Source of the DNA: Naegleria gruberi
Lineage: Eukaryota
Strand: one strand, 5' to 3'
DNA length: 64,000 nt
Assembly: GCA_000004985.1 (NCBI GenBank)
Contig: GG738907.1
Part shown: piece by piece, positions 20,578 through 44,444 of the stretch
How the letters are laid out: every line of letters begins with the position of its first letter
Numbering within the stretch: the stretch's first letter is position 1
Position numbers and translations under genes: made by a program
The notes under the pieces: model-generated
Told to the model about the DNA's origin: nothing
What the model saw: the letters and a program-made list of their open reading frames with translations, nothing else
The model's database searches: none

Positions 20578-21903
20578 TTAATTGTCAACTTGTTGACTTT
20601 TAACAAAATTGTAAAACTCGATAGTAAATATGGAAACTCTCCAAGCATGTTTCTTCTCTGAATTTGATCGATTGAAATTTTCTTTAAAGAGAGCTTTGTA
20701 ATCTTCATTACAGAGAACCAATTTACAACTCTTTTCTGGATACTTGTTCTGGAAGAGTGGCACGAAATAATTCAAAATCTGAGTTCGATTCTTGAATGCA
20801 TCAATCAAGACATAAGTTTTACCTTTCCACTTGACAGAGAAATCGTCCAAATCACCAACTGGTTTCTGAGACTTGGTATGATCTTTTTCTGATTCATCCA
20901 CAATGGAGAATGAAGTACCATTTGAGGAAGAAACACTTGTTTGTTTGCTGCTAAGTTTTGAAGACTTGCTTGGTTTCTCATAGGATGAGCCATTCGAAAC
21001 TGGAGATGAAACATTGTATTCATGTGTTGGTGATTCTCTTCTCTTCTTTACAACATTATTTCTTGCTCTGGTTTTGATTGGTTCTGGATTTGGTGGAAGA
21101 TCAGCACATGCATTCGAATGCAAAACATGACTATTAGAAACTGCACTGTTTAACCTCTTTTCAGATTCATTAATTTGATACCTCAGTGAATTATTTTCTC
21201 TTTCCAAATCGATTATCATTACAGATTGCCTTTCCAGCTGTTTCTCCAACTGAGAAATTCTTTCGAATAGAGGGGAAAGATTTTGATCTGCTACTATTGT
21301 TGGTGTATGTGGAGCATGTTGATATTGTGGACGTGAGTTATTTCTAGAGTTTGTGGATGATTGTAAACATGCAAAGAATCCATTTGGTGAATCTACTGCA
21401 GTTCTACATGGATATGATACAGTATTCGAATAAGTTTCGTACTTTCGTTGAGACGAAATGTGAGAAACATTATCATCAGAAACTTGTCTTTGATTTGAAT
21501 GCATTGATACATGTGGAGTTGCTGTGTTGTTCTGGGTATTAGTATGAGATGGATATGAAGAATAAGTTTCCTGTAAAAATTCTTTCAAATTTGGCAAAAC
21601 AGAAACTGGAGAAGCAGAAAGCAGTTTTCTATTATTGGAAAACATGTTAGAATCCTGACTAAACCCATCCATTTGATGTGCTGCTCTATTCATCATCATA
21701 TCTGAATTAGTAGTAGCCAACAGTTGGTTTGAAGTATTTGAATTAAAATATTTAAAACTTGCTGGTGGTGGCAGTTGACTTGTAGTGGACATGGGTGATG
21801 TTGAGGATGTTAGAGCCGGAAGAGTCATGTTACTGGAGTTGTATCTTTCAGGTATAGTGGTGGTATTACTAGAAGTAGTTGTTGAGGAAGTTGTTAGTGA
21901 CAT
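20578..21903 (-). CDS. Member 1 (441 aa, dispersed copy) of the uncharacterised LPNF/coiled-coil/C-terminal KxAWRxSIFT-domain family
   Basis: N-terminal S/T-rich region. LPNLKEFLQETY motif. Coiled coil LSPLFERISQLEKQLERQSVMIIDLERENNSLRYQ. Basic VVKKRRESP patch. C-terminal FSVKWKGKTYVLIDAFKNRTQILNYFVPLFQNKYPEKSCKLVLCNEDYKALFKEN...SEKKHAWRVSIFTIEFYNFVK, which aligns to the four copies at 37.7-44.4 kb. Confidence 0.6.
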   Translation of the reverse strand: MSLTTSSTTTSSNTTTIPERYNSSNMTLPALTSSTSPMSTTSQLPPPASFKYFNSNTSNQLLATTNSDMMMNRAAHQMDGFSQDSNMFSNNRKLLSASPVSVLPNLKEFLQETYSSYPSHTNTQNNTATPHVSMHSNQRQVSDDNVSHISSQRKYETYSNTVSYPCRTAVDSPNGFFACLQSSTNSRNNSRPQYQHAPHTPTIVADQNLSPLFERISQLEKQLERQSVMIIDLERENNSLRYQINESEKRLNSAVSNSHVLHSNACADLPPNPEPIKTRARNNVVKKRRESPTHEYNVSSPVSNGSSYEKPSKSSKLSSKQTSVSSSNGTSFSIVDESEKDHTKSQKPVGDLDDFSVKWKGKTYVLIDAFKNRTQILNYFVPLFQNKYPEKSCKLVLCNEDYKALFKENFNRSNSEKKHAWRVSIFTIEFYNFVKSQQVDN

Positions 21904-37694: not shown

Positions 37695-38837
37695 TTACAC
37701 TTGCTGATTCTTCACAAAATTATAAAAATCAATCGTGAATATTGAAATTCTCCATGCATGCTTTCGTTCTGATTGAGATCGATGAGTATTCTCTCTAAAT
37801 AATTGTTTGTACTCTTCACTGGAGAGAACTACTTTACAATTCTTGTCAGGAAACTGACTCTGATATAATGGAACGAAATAATTCATGATTTGAGTTCGAT
37901 TTTTGAAAACATCCACCAGCACATAATTTTCTCCTTTCCATTTGACTGAAAATTGCTCAATTCCTCCAAGAACTGGAGCTTCTTCAATATCAACTGGTTG
38001 CTTACTAGCTCCTGATTCATCAACTAATGAAAACGTTGTTTGAGTAGTAAGTAAATTATTCGAAAGTTGTTCATTAGAAACAGGTGAAGTTTTCCTCTTT
38101 TTCTGTGCTTTCTTTTTCCTTGGTTCGTTTTGATTTTGCAATTCAGAATTTTCTCGTTTGTTAGGTGCAGTTTTTAATTCATAATTTTCTCTCTGCAATT
38201 CAGTAATTGTTTTGTGTTGAGTTTCTAATTCTCTTTCCAATAGATGGATTCTTTCTCTTAGTTGGTTGATTAAATGTTGTTGAGAATCTGCTGCATGTAC
38301 TTCATGTTGAATGTGGTGATTGTAGGGAGAATTTGTTGAGAGAATGTTTGTTGGTGAAGAAGTGGAAGAATTGAAATCTTTCGTCTGGTTTCCAATAGAT
38401 GCATATCCATAACTGCTTGATGTACAAGATGATGTTCTGTTGAAGAGGTTTCGTTCTGTTGTTGGAGGATACTGTACATGCCCTTCCTCATGCCACATGT
38501 GTTGTGATGGCATGGAAGCGGATGGCAAACTGCAAGACACATTATTAGAAAGATTATTAGAAAGGTGGAGGACATGATTGTTTGGTAATGTTGATCCTTG
38601 GAAGTTATCTTGGAATAAATCTCTCAAGTTTGGTAATGGCATGGGTTTCGTAGTCCAATTATCTGAAACATTTACTTGCCGAGAGTCTTCGAAAGTAGAC
38701 GAAACTTGTCGTATTCTTGTTGGTGGTGAAACAGATGAAGAATAAACCTCTTGTGATGATGATGAAACTGGATAATTGGATGAAGCAAAGAAATTGGCCG
38801 AATTTGCACTTCTTTGATTTGGATAGTTAGGAGACAT
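37695..38837 (-). CDS. Family member 2 (380 aa) of the LPNF/coiled-coil/KxAWRxSIFT-domain family; first gene of the four-gene tandem array
   Basis: LPNLRDLFQDNF motif. Coiled coil QQHLINQLRERIHLLERELETQHKTITELQRENYELK. Basic PRKKKAQKKRK patch. C-terminal IEQFSVKWKGENYVLVDVFKNRTQIMNYFVPLYQSQFPDKNCKVVLSSEEYKQLFRENTHRSQSERKHAWRISIFTIDFYNFVKNQQV. Confidence 0.6.
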   Translation of the reverse strand: MSPNYPNQRSANSANFFASSNYPVSSSSQEVYSSSVSPPTRIRQVSSTFEDSRQVNVSDNWTTKPMPLPNLRDLFQDNFQGSTLPNNHVLHLSNNLSNNVSCSLPSASMPSQHMWHEEGHVQYPPTTERNLFNRTSSCTSSSYGYASIGNQTKDFNSSTSSPTNILSTNSPYNHHIQHEVHAADSQQHLINQLRERIHLLERELETQHKTITELQRENYELKTAPNKRENSELQNQNEPRKKKAQKKRKTSPVSNEQLSNNLLTTQTTFSLVDESGASKQPVDIEEAPVLGGIEQFSVKWKGENYVLVDVFKNRTQIMNYFVPLYQSQFPDKNCKVVLSSEEYKQLFRENTHRSQSERKHAWRISIFTIDFYNFVKNQQV

Positions 38838-40282
38838 TTGTTTAGTTTTTTTTCGAATAGATTAAACAATTCAGTGGTAAAGTCTGCGTCTAAAACAAAG
38901 TAAACAACACACTTTGATAAAGGAAATATCGGATGAGTCTTGATAACGAAACAATTCTAATGATTTTCACAAGATGAAACCTCGTTTCGAATAAGCTTGT
39001 TTAAGTCTTAAGAATTTGCACAAATTAGACAGGTGTCACAACTTACAACTTGAAATGCTGAGGTTTCCTCGCAAGATTCCTCTTGTTCATGTAAAGGAAA
39101 CAAGTGTCCCTATTTAACTCAATTGATTTGCAAAGAAAACTGAAAGATTTATAAGGAACTTTGTGCGATGAGATCATTAATCCGTAAACGATAGTCCAAT
39201 AACACGATGTATCAGATTGCATCCAATGTTTCAAGTGTAATTGTGTCTTCTTTTTCTTTCGTACAAATAGCTGTTATCATGCAAAGCCAACCGATATTAC
39301 CAAAAGTGGAAATGACATCCTAGTATAAAATTGTGTTGTTTCCAAAGGTCTGATAAAGGACTCCATTGTCTTGTCTTTATTATATTCATTTCATGTTCTC
39401 TTATAATAATGGTTAACTTTAGGCAAGTTTCGTCAAGGATTCATTTGATTGCAAATTATGATAATCCACACAGGTATATATATTGGATCTCCTATTCTTT
39501 TCATTTTACCCGAAAGAATTTCACCTCATTCTATAATTTGTTTCCAAGTGGCCACGAATGCTAACCTCAATATTTATAAGGTATTACCCTTTCTATCATA
39601 TGATCTAGAGTTGGCAACTGAATGTATCAAATGTACCAAGAAGAGAAGGTCTCGCAAAACACTTTTGTTTGTAACTATGGAATTATTTTCACCATTTCCA
39701 ACCAATGTTGAATTCACTGACAGTGAAGATGATACGCCACGATGATGATTGCACTTGTTGTTGAAGTCCTCCTCCATAAGCATCCGCTCCAAATATTGAG
39801 AATGCGAATGACAAGGTCTAACAACATTAGAAAATTTCAGTAAATGATAAGTTTTGTAATAAGGTTCTTCATTTTAAATTGTAAATTTTCAAGTCCTTAT
39901 ATTGTTGGAGATGAAGCTCTTTGTGTATAGTATTTTGGAATGAATGACATGATTCAACAATGTATTTCTATAATTTGATCATGAACATTCCAAACGAGTT
40001 TAAAAAGGACATTAGGTGATTGAAATATGTGTTCGAATTGTTGGATTAGATCCAAAATCAATTTTTCTCGTTTAGGTTAATAAGAGATCTCCCAAGATTG
40101 GAAAATTGAGTAAATTTGCTGATATATTAAGTCTTTCACTTCTGGTTAGATCTCTGTCAATTGATTCAAATCCACCAAGTATTTGGCTGTCTGAGAATGA
40201 ATCATTGAGATTCGTCATGTTTCTGATTGTAATTATTCTTGATCAATCTCTTCGTATTTAATTATTTCTGTCAAATTACATT

Positions 40283-41215
40283 TCATTTATTTTGACGTTT
40301 CACAAACTCATAAAATTCAATAGAAAATATGGTTATTCTCCAAGCTCTCTTTCTCTCACTTTCTTTAACATGTGGATTCGTACTAAACAGTTTCTTATAT
40401 TCCTCTCTTTCTAATACCATTTTCGAAACCTTATCTGGATTATTCGATTGGTAGAGTGGATAATAATAGTTTACAATATCTGATTTGTTACTGAACGCAT
40501 CGATCAAGACGAATTGTTCTCCATTCCAGTCAACTGTGTAATTTTCAAGGTTTTTGACTTGATTGTTGGCTTTTTGTTGACTCTTCTCAAATTCATCAAT
40601 CACGAGGAAGAGCTTTCTATCCTTTCGTTTGGTTTCGGTGAAATCTAGAGTTTCGTCTCGTTTCTTTAGAATTTCATCATGCTTTCTCTTCTTTTCTTTC
40701 ATTTTCTGGTTTTCATTCTCGAGAATGGAAATTGTGCTGTCTTGTTTCTTGACATCACTTTCAAGTTTTTGAATTCTTTCGTATAGTTTTTCGATAAGGC
40801 CATCCATGGTTCGTCCCATTTCGTCTCGAATTGCAGAGTGAAAAGGTATCTTGTCATGTCCCTTTGGAGATGTAGAGACACTACTCGTAAAGTATGGTTG
40901 TGACATTTGTTTCTTCTCCCAATATTCGAAACTATTTCCCCATGTAAATGTACTTTTCCTTGTTGAATTACATGTTTCGTCTCTACTTTCGAAAGGTTTC
41001 GAGACGAAAGTATCTCTTAGAAATTCATTGAAATTTGGCAATGCTGCCACTTCATCTTCTTCACCACAACTTCTTTCATTATTTCCTGGGCCCACAACTG
41101 CATCATTTCCTTTCGAATAATTTCTACCGAAAGGTAGGCTAAATAATGAACTATTCATTTGTCTTGTTTTTTTGTTTGTTATCCTTCCAAGCGACCAACC
41201 AACACACAACTCCAT
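40283..41215 (-). CDS. Family member 3 (310 aa), same strand and same architecture
   Basis: LPNFNEFLRDTF motif. Coiled coil MDGLIEKLYERIQKLESDVKKQDSTISILENENQKMKEKKRK. C-terminal YTVDWNGEQFVLIDAFSNKSDIVNYYYPLYQSNNPDKVSKMVLEREEYKKLFSTNPHVKESERKRAWRITIFSIEFYEFVKRQNK. Confidence 0.6.
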   Translation of the reverse strand: MELCVGWSLGRITNKKTRQMNSSLFSLPFGRNYSKGNDAVVGPGNNERSCGEEDEVAALPNFNEFLRDTFVSKPFESRDETCNSTRKSTFTWGNSFEYWEKKQMSQPYFTSSVSTSPKGHDKIPFHSAIRDEMGRTMDGLIEKLYERIQKLESDVKKQDSTISILENENQKMKEKKRKHDEILKKRDETLDFTETKRKDRKLFLVIDEFEKSQQKANNQVKNLENYTVDWNGEQFVLIDAFSNKSDIVNYYYPLYQSNNPDKVSKMVLEREEYKKLFSTNPHVKESERKRAWRITIFSIEFYEFVKRQNK

Positions 41216-41745
41216 TTAACACAAACACATCGATTCGTTCATAGGTTTAGTTTGCCTCCTTAACCTATCTGTTTCCAATAGTGGTTTCTTCTCAGTCCTT
41301 TCTAAAGTGATTAACCTCCCGATTTGTAAACTTTAAATCAAGATCTTTGTGTGATCTTTAATTTTCCGCCCAATTAAGATGCCACCTAAGGATTGACTTA
41401 CTCATTAATTAAAGAGATTCAAATAAAGGTTTCTAATAGTGGTGTGAAAAATGATAGAATTTGACGGCAAGTGTCCGAGATGGTGCACATTAAACATAAA
41501 TACTTTTAAAGTGAAATGCCAAGTTGTGCAGTAACATGAGCAATGTGGCTATGGATTTCTTTATTTGGGAAATGACAGTTGTGATGGACACGACTCTTAT
41601 ATCAATGGCTATAAAGCACAACATTGAGAGAACATGACATTTAAAAGTTTCTAATGTAATATGAGGAGGATCAAATCATCTCTGGTCGGGGTAGCAACAG
41701 TTTCGAATAAGATACACGAATGTGTGATAATGTTTACAGATTTTC

Positions 41746-42603
41746 TCAAACTCTTATATGGTTCTTAACAAAATTATAAAAATCGATTGTAAAGATTGAA
41801 ATTCTCCAAGCTTGCTTCTTTTCTGATGTCTTGATGTGCTGATTCTCTTTGAATAGTTTCTTATATTCATCACATTGCACAACTAATTTAAATTCCTTAT
41901 TTGGAAATGTGGTTTGATAGAGTGGACAATAATAATTCATAATTTCATCTCTATTCTTAAAAACGTTGATAATGACATATTGATTTCCTCTCCAATTGAC
42001 TAAATATTGATTTAAATCACCAACTCCTGATTCCAAATTTTCAATAAATGATGTTTCTTGGACAAGTGTCATTTGTTTTGATTGGTTGGTGAGTTTTTTT
42101 CTACATGCAGTTGGTTTTCCAATTTTTCTTGTTTTCAGTGATTGATTTTCTTTCAAGAGATTTGAAATTACTTGAGATTGTTCATAAATTCTTCTTTCCA
42201 TTTCTTCTATTTTCTGAATCAGAGACGAAACTTGAATCGAACTATCATTTTGTAAATCAACATGTTGACCATCACATGATAAAGATGAGCTCGATTGTGA
42301 AATTGCTTCAAATCTTGGATTATCCACTTGATGTGTTTGTTGCCCTTCAAATTTCACCTGACAAAATTCTTGATTATTAAAATTCTGTAAAGATGAAGAA
42401 GAAGGAGATGATGGAGAACACATGGATTGTGAAAGGAATTCTCTGAAATTTGGTAAAGCATGTTGTGGAGTTTCTTCCTGCTTGATTATTGCGTATTGAA
42501 GATGTTGATTCATTTTAGTCAACTGTGAGAATGTTAGTGGAATTGATTGTGTTTGTTTTTTAAAGTTTGTTGTTGCCAGATGCTTATCATCTGATGTTTG
42601 CAT
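41746..42603 (-). CDS. Family member 4 (285 aa), same strand and same architecture
   Basis: LPNFREFLSQSM motif. Coiled coil IQKIEEMERRIYEQSQVISNLLKENQSLKTRK. C-terminal YLVNWRGNQYVIINVFKNRDEIMNYYCPLYQTTFPNKEFKLVVQCDEYKKLFKENQHIKTSEKKQAWRISIFTIDFYNFVKNHIRV. Confidence 0.6.
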   Translation of the reverse strand: MQTSDDKHLATTNFKKQTQSIPLTFSQLTKMNQHLQYAIIKQEETPQHALPNFREFLSQSMCSPSSPSSSSLQNFNNQEFCQVKFEGQQTHQVDNPRFEAISQSSSSLSCDGQHVDLQNDSSIQVSSLIQKIEEMERRIYEQSQVISNLLKENQSLKTRKIGKPTACRKKLTNQSKQMTLVQETSFIENLESGVGDLNQYLVNWRGNQYVIINVFKNRDEIMNYYCPLYQTTFPNKEFKLVVQCDEYKKLFKENQHIKTSEKKQAWRISIFTIDFYNFVKNHIRV

Positions 42604-43508
42604 TCAAAATTGCGCAGCAAGAAGATGTGTAAGCAGAAAGGATGAGGTTTATTCTACTTTCGGATGATCAAACACCCGCTGTTATGAGCAAACCTCCTCG
42701 AATGTTTCTTGTCTGGAAGGCAGATTATTGTTATGGTGTTTGATAGCGGGGCGGTCAGTTGGCTGTACTACACTATGCGATATGTCTTTGTCCATCTATT
42801 GATGCGAATTTGAATGGTGAAACAAGTTTATTAGAAACTAATCTTTTGAAGTTGTTCAATAGAGTAAGTTTAAAATTCGAAAACATACATATTATCCAAT
42901 GAAAATCAAAGTGTTTATTCCAATTCTAAAGAAAGGTTTCGAATATTAAATAAAGCAACATGCCATGTTAAATAATCTCCAAAACCTTGAAACTAATGGT
43001 AAACTGAGTTCATAAGTTGCCCATCAATTTAAGATGACACAAAGATATAAATGTCAAAGAATAATGAATAATACCATGTCGCCTCCTCAATTTCAACTAC
43101 AGTTTTATGTCAATAATCACAATTGACATTAGATTGGCAACTTTCCTTTTATTAATACAACAAAATGTTACAAGTTAGAAATAGTAGCTAACAAGTTGGA
43201 ATGTGTTTAAAATTCTCCTGAGTAGAGCCACTACCAACTCATCTCGAGCTTATCAATCTTTATCCTGTTGATAGTGTGTTACAATTGATCAATTCATATG
43301 ATTCATTCAATTGTAGATGATAATAATTGATAGAAATTTATTAGAGATGATCTGCAGACACTTGAATGGTTTGTGTTTACTGTCTTTTTCGTTATTCAAT
43401 TACTATCTGGTTCTCACGAGTTTGTTTTCATTCTGATCTTTGGAATATTCTCTGTTCGTTTGTACAACACATGTAGTTTGCAAACATGTGTGGAGAAACA
43501 AGTAGACT

Positions 43509-44444
43509 CTAATTGTTGCCATTCTGATTGCATTCTCTTACAAAGTTTACAAATTCCATTGTAAAAAGTGAAACTCTCCATGCACGTTTTTTGAAAAGTG
43601 GAATAATGTGTGGATTCTCGCTCAATAATTGACGATATTCATTCTTCTCAACAACCAATTTGTAATCCTTCTTTGGATAGAATGATTCAAACTTTGGACA
43701 ATAGAAATGAGAAACATCATCCTTATTAGTGAAAATATTCGAAATGACATAAGTGGCTCCATTCCAAACAACAGAATAGTCATTGACATTGCTCATCACA
43801 ATATCTTGCTTGTTATGACTCAGTGATGATTCTGCTATAACAGTAAACTCAATTGGTGAACTGCTGGCTCTACTAGAAGTATGACTTGGTTGTGGACTAT
43901 TTGTTGGTTGAGTGCTGTTTGATTGAGTATCTACCTTTCTCTTCTTCCTTTTGAGAAGTACGTTCTCTTGCACAAGACGAGAAATTTCAGATTGTTGTCT
44001 CTCAATTTCTGCATTTAGCCGGTTAAACTCATCAACAGGGGATGTTCTCTTCAATGATTGTTTCATCTGGCCAACTGATGTTTGCTCAGTGACAGAAGAT
44101 GGTATGTATAATTGTCTGTTACTGCTTGTTGATACTGCTGCTGTAGCTGGATTAACATGTGTGAATCCCGGTTGGTTATTATTTTGGTGGTGATATAAAA
44201 CAGTTGGGTTGACCAAATTATTTGCAAAGGTGTTTTGGATAAATTCATCAAAACTTGGCAAGGTATTGTTTAATGGCATGGTGATTATTGACATTATCGA
44301 ATAGATAACAACAATTGATGAAGGTTGTTCGTTTGTTTTTTTCTCTGTGTATGAGAAATTCTCCAAGCAGCTTGCTGGGCTTAAAGATATTGTTCCCAAG
44401 AAAAGTGACCATTTCAGGATTCTAGGAAGGACCGATACCACCAT
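43509..44444 (-). CDS. Family member 5 (311 aa or less; the real start is probably the internal MSIITMPLNN or MPLNN), the most diverged copy
   Basis: LPSFDEFIQNTF motif. Coiled coil FNRLNAEIERQQSEISRLVQENVLLKRKKRK. C-terminal YSVVWNGATYVISNIFTNKDDVSHFYCPKFESFYPKKDYKLVVEKNEYRQLLSENPHIIPLFKKRAWRVSLFTMEFVNFVRECNQ. Confidence 0.55.
   Translation of the reverse strand: MVVSVLPRILKWSLFLGTISLSPASCLENFSYTEKKTNEQPSSIVVIYSIMSIITMPLNNTLPSFDEFIQNTFANNLVNPTVLYHHQNNNQPGFTHVNPATAAVSTSSNRQLYIPSSVTEQTSVGQMKQSLKRTSPVDEFNRLNAEIERQQSEISRLVQENVLLKRKKRKVDTQSNSTQPTNSPQPSHTSSRASSSPIEFTVIAESSLSHNKQDIVMSNVNDYSVVWNGATYVISNIFTNKDDVSHFYCPKFESFYPKKDYKLVVEKNEYRQLLSENPHIIPLFKKRAWRVSLFTMEFVNFVRECNQNGNN

Follow-up and report, generated by a model that had tools for sequence, protein, structure and literature searches.

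A Naegleria-restricted family of leucine-zipper proteins with a predicted DHD-like winged-helix domain

Five paralogous genes on one Naegleria gruberi scaffold

The 64,000-nt stretch of N. gruberi contig GG738907.1 analyzed here (the window) contains five intact open reading frames (ORFs) of 380, 310, 285, 311, and 441 amino acids, all on the minus strand. Four form a tandem array and the fifth lies ~16 kb away, an arrangement that the first-pass annotation had already reported at these positions. Within the array, paralogue 1 (37695..38837, minus strand; 380 aa; NAEGRDRAFT_81602, XP_002671254) matches a predicted protein of N. gruberi at 100% identity, and is joined by paralogue 2 (40283..41215, minus strand; NAEGRDRAFT_73754), paralogue 3 (41746..42603, minus strand; NAEGRDRAFT_73755), and paralogue 4 (43509..44444, minus strand; NAEGRDRAFT_73756), the most divergent copy. 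The dispersed paralogue occupies 20578..21903 (minus strand; 441 aa; NAEGRDRAFT_73745). The deposited models of paralogues 2, 3, and 4 begin at internal ATGs, at 41158, 42513, and 44279 respectively, and encode 291, 255, and 256 aa; the maximal ORFs of 310, 285, and 311 aa therefore overstate these N-termini. Deposited records name the family proteins only as "predicted protein". A sixth member, NAEGRDRAFT_81608, is encoded on the same scaffold outside the window, and accession order and synteny suggest that it lies just past the window's 3' end.

Searching the window by tblastn with the C-terminal domain recovered exactly five copies (E 1e-20 to 1e-79), with no degenerate extra copies or fragments between the array genes. 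The only upstream k-mers shared by the five promoters are A-rich and of low complexity, at the level seen in controls, and give no sign of co-regulation. The modular architecture proposed in the first-pass annotation is evident in the alignment, which recovers an N-terminal motif, a zipper, a basic patch, and a C-terminal domain; the N-termini of paralogues 2–4, however, had been drawn too long from the maximal ORFs.

Unannotated genes clustered on one strand could be assembly duplicates, pseudogenes, or mobile or viral cargo, but for these copies that explanation is effectively refuted. The five proteins are 26–42% identical over their whole length, and DNA similarity between the copies is confined to one 69-nt coding block. 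Moreover, an independent metagenome contig, 97.8% identical, carries an ADF-H gene followed by paralogues 4, 3, and 2 in the same order; the array, whose site lies between a TPR gene and the ADF-H gene, is thus not an assembly artefact. All five frames are intact, and between-strain pN/pS values of 0.38, 0.24, and 0.13 for paralogues 2, 3, and 4 reflect purifying selection, with none of the 14 between-strain amino-acid replacements falling in the C-terminal domain. Mobile or viral origin is countered by the conserved synteny of long-form family members across N. fowleri and N. lovaniensis, by a related-locus search of metagenome and viral contigs that returned no relatives, and by a uniform GC content. 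All five ORFs are best read as functional paralogues that diverged long ago and are conserved under purifying selection.

Distribution and history of the family

A profile of the C-terminal domain was searched against 1.84e9 representative proteins, yielding 19 matches: 18 family members and one ankyrin-repeat protein regarded as noise. All 18 are Naegleria or metagenome sequences, and every named one is from Naegleria. Searching again for homologues with an alignment of the 18 domain sequences gave a single short protein, which carries no information on copy number. The family is thus known only from Naegleria and metagenome sequences. The lack of any Pfam or PDB sequence match, of names beyond "predicted protein", and of literature on the six gene identifiers bears out the earlier suggestion that the family is undescribed; literature on Naegleria with Dachshund likewise yielded nothing relevant. 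Synteny between the window and a metagenome relative, P0004, was considered on the strength of a 453-aa neighboring gene and rejected as a coincidence of length.

Copy numbers, all lower bounds, are at least 10 in N. gruberi (including members 63351 and 69445), at least three in N. lovaniensis, and at least one in N. fowleri. These counts agree with the lineage-specific expansion suggested from the window alone, but tandem duplication does not account for all of it. In a neighbor-joining tree the four array genes do not form one clade; the nearest neighbors of paralogue 1 are the dispersed copy and a gene from a different scaffold, and paralogues 2–4 cluster with a gene from a further scaffold. 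Because array genes group with genes on other scaffolds, duplication and dispersal were mixed and old, and the array itself probably goes back to ancient duplications within the N. gruberi lineage.

A conserved zipper, a basic patch, and an N-terminal motif

Each protein contains a leucine zipper whose conserved part spans 4–5 heptads (28–35 aa), rather than the 35–45 aa first estimated. Across 15 members the a/d core is nearly invariant, reading [IFM]-L, [LVI]-Q, I-L, N-L. In paralogue 1 the zipper (38166..38270, minus strand) comprises five heptads with the core I-L I-L L-Q I-L N-L; it maps to 40691..40795 in paralogue 2, 42127..42231 in paralogue 3, and 21175..21279 in the dispersed paralogue (all minus strand). 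The zipper of paralogue 4 (43944..44048, minus strand) has only four good heptads and a proline in the first. Parallel dimeric zippers typically carry an Asn at one of their 'a' positions, and its presence here indicates that the family proteins probably form homodimers; heterodimers among the paralogues are possible from the same sequence features.

A basic patch accompanies the zipper. It reads RKKKAQKKRK in paralogue 1 (38091..38120, minus strand), follows the zipper directly in paralogues 2 (KKRK, 40682..40693, minus strand) and 4 (KRKKRK, 43935..43952, minus strand), and reads KKRR in the dispersed paralogue (21037..21048, minus strand). The first-pass annotation had attributed a KRK patch to every copy, but that of paralogue 3 is weak (RKK, 42094..42102, minus strand). 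Judged against the classical K-K/R-x-K/R consensus, the KKRK-type patch is a probable nuclear localization signal.

The pairing of a zipper with a basic cluster invites comparison with bZIP proteins. The two share a short, parallel-type repeat of leucines in heptad spacing, with a polar Asn at 'a' and a basic cluster next to it, and each comprises many paralogues, which could permit combinatorial dimers. In this family, however, the patch lies C-terminal to the zipper or apart from it, as the first-pass annotation correctly observed in calling the order the reverse of bZIP, and it is too short for a bZIP basic region. No basic region adjoins the zipper on its N-terminal side, and neither bZIP_1 nor bZIP_2 gave a Pfam match at E up to 1. 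Any DNA contact would instead come from a separate globular domain.

The S/T/N-rich N-terminus of each protein carries a single conserved amphipathic motif of the general form [LI]P[NST]ΦxxΦΦ. Alignment shows this ΦxxΦΦ-type element, LPN[FL]xEF[LI], to be common to all five copies. Alignment and motif mapping place it on the minus strand at 38613..38636 in paralogue 1 (LPNLRDLF), 41018..41041 in paralogue 2 (LPNFNEFL), 42433..42456 in paralogue 3 (LPNFREFL), 44238..44261 in paralogue 4 (LPSFDEFI), and 21574..21597 in the dispersed paralogue (LPNLKEFL). It is likely to be a docking or activation motif.

The C-terminal domain is predicted to be a DHD-like winged helix

The proteins end in a basic α/β domain of ~97 aa (pI 8.6–9.5), ~85 aa of which are ordered in the model. 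It spans residues 284–380 of paralogue 1 (37698..37988), ORF residues 214–310 of paralogue 2 (40286..40576), 188–285 of paralogue 3 (41749..42042), and 211–311 of paralogue 4 (43512..43814), and residues 343–441 of the dispersed paralogue (20581..20877), in each case on the minus strand. The other four window copies are 34–63% identical to paralogue 1 here, consistent with the conservation first noted, and the closest is the dispersed paralogue at about 61–63%. Pfam searches, whether with full proteins or with the domains alone, produced nothing beyond coiled-coil noise and chance matches below threshold, and no PDB sequence matched the domain profile below E 0.3.

AF2 models of the domain reached pLDDT values of 75 and 84, and in a second run all five models scored 81–84. 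DSSP assignments for two models give the order β1-β2-short helix-α-β3-α-loop (short helix)-β4-α. A ββααβαβα(α) order with an additional helix in the wing loop characterizes the DHD-like variant winged helix, a group that comprises INI1-N, the SKI/SnoN/DACH1 DHD, BCOR PUFD, and DNTTIP1 (Allen et al. 2015). The predicted models possess both this order and the extra wing-loop helix. Foldseek with the domain model likewise ranked this group first, and every leading fold match is a chromatin protein of the nucleus. The C-terminal domain is therefore predicted to adopt a DHD-like variant winged helix, as in SMARCB1/INI1, Ski/Sno/Dachshund, BCOR PUFD, and DNTTIP1. Only one charged residue is invariant, the Arg of A-[WY]-R, which the AF2 model places where the wing loop ends.

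The same stretch had earlier been compared with the KDWK motif of SAND domains, implying a SAND-like DNA-binding domain. The resemblance of K..AWR to KDWK is superficial, and the fold and sequence match to SAND (PF01342), with KDWK on the DNA-binding surface, was not found; we consider this assignment very improbable.

The fold prediction is not accompanied by detectable sequence homology. When the family profile was aligned by hhalign, an INI1-WH profile built from 15 sequences scored E 0.25 with a probability of 0.2%, and the DACH1/SKI/SKIL DHD scored E 0.72 with a probability <1%, the latter being a weak test with a DHD profile of only three sequences. By hmmscan, nine domain sequences did not match PF21459 at E up to 10, nor was PF02437 (Ski_Sno_DHD) matched, and no SMARCB1 homologues appeared in the 1.84e9-protein profile search. 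By eye, the family shares with INI1-WH/DHD a G-E-x-Y in β2, a Pro after the long helix, and S/T-x-E-E-x-K-x-[LI] in helix 3. Because these by-eye residue matches lack statistical support, homology to INI1-WH/DHD is not claimed.

Domain context also separates the family from each structural relative. In SMARCB1/INI1 (PF21459 INI1_DNA-bd; PDB 5aj1, 6lth_M), which has no detectable sequence relationship to the family, the domain is N-terminal in a monomeric SWI/SNF subunit and has been described as metazoan-only, whereas here it is C-terminal, follows a zipper, and belongs to Naegleria. In Ski/Sno/Dachshund proteins (PDB 1l8r, 1sbx, 3eq5) the DHD sits at the N-terminus and is followed C-terminally by the coiled coil, an order that is reversed in the family, which also lacks sequence similarity, the CLPQ motif, and a SAND-like SMAD4-binding domain. 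The PUFD of BCOR/BCORL1 (PDB 4hpl, 8hcu, 4hpm) pairs with the PCGF1 RAWUL; the Naegleria proteins show neither sequence similarity nor any sign of such a partner.

Candidate nuclear regulators

Since the predicted fold falls among winged-helix domains that associate with chromatin, a nuclear regulatory role is the best reading, in line with the first-pass suggestion of a regulatory family. We propose, with a probability of roughly 55%, that these Naegleria-only proteins are dimeric nuclear regulators of transcription or chromatin that combine a zipper with a predicted DHD-like winged helix. The zipper would pair two family proteins and the basic patch would direct the dimer to the nucleus, where its two winged-helix domains would probably contact DNA or partners bound to chromatin and the motif in the disordered S/T/N-rich N-terminus would recruit cofactors.

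Function varies within this fold class. The INI1 winged helix binds DNA weakly and non-specifically, and the SKI DHD and BCOR PUFD are protein-binding modules; the fold therefore does not imply DNA binding by the family domain. A plausible though less likely alternative is that the C-terminal domain is a protein-interaction module like BCOR PUFD or the SKI DHD, and that these proteins are dimeric adaptors or co-regulators brought to chromatin by other factors rather than binding DNA. The family would then be no more than a set of orphan co-regulators expanded in one lineage, as is common in protists.

An improbable alternative is that these are coiled-coil proteins acting outside the nucleus, for instance in the cytoskeleton or centrosome, whose patch and fold resemblance are incidental. 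Naegleria has many lineage-specific cytoskeletal proteins, and the noise in Pfam is of the coiled-coil type. However, 4–5 heptads is the length of a zipper and not of a structural rod, KKRK-type patches are conserved next to the coiled coil, and the top fold matches are uniformly nuclear.

Naegleria serves as a model both of rapid cell differentiation and of early eukaryotic diversity. As a nuclear regulator family, these genus-restricted proteins, with a zipper, a nuclear-type signal, and a predicted chromatin-type winged helix, would be concrete candidate regulators in Naegleria. Such regulators are of interest because Naegleria lacks RFX, FOXJ1, and XAP5, and other transcription factors must therefore regulate many of its cilia genes (2025 review). 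More speculatively, and in our view doubtfully, the proteins may be sequence-specific, zipper-dimerized DHD-like winged-helix transcription factors that form combinatorial heterodimers, were expanded in N. gruberi, and help drive transitions between amoeba, flagellate, and cyst, with a fold that either long predates animals or arose on two separate occasions. The DHD-like fold was stated in 2015 to be exclusive to metazoan chromatin proteins (Allen et al. 2015); its occurrence in a discoban protist, if true, would revise that statement.

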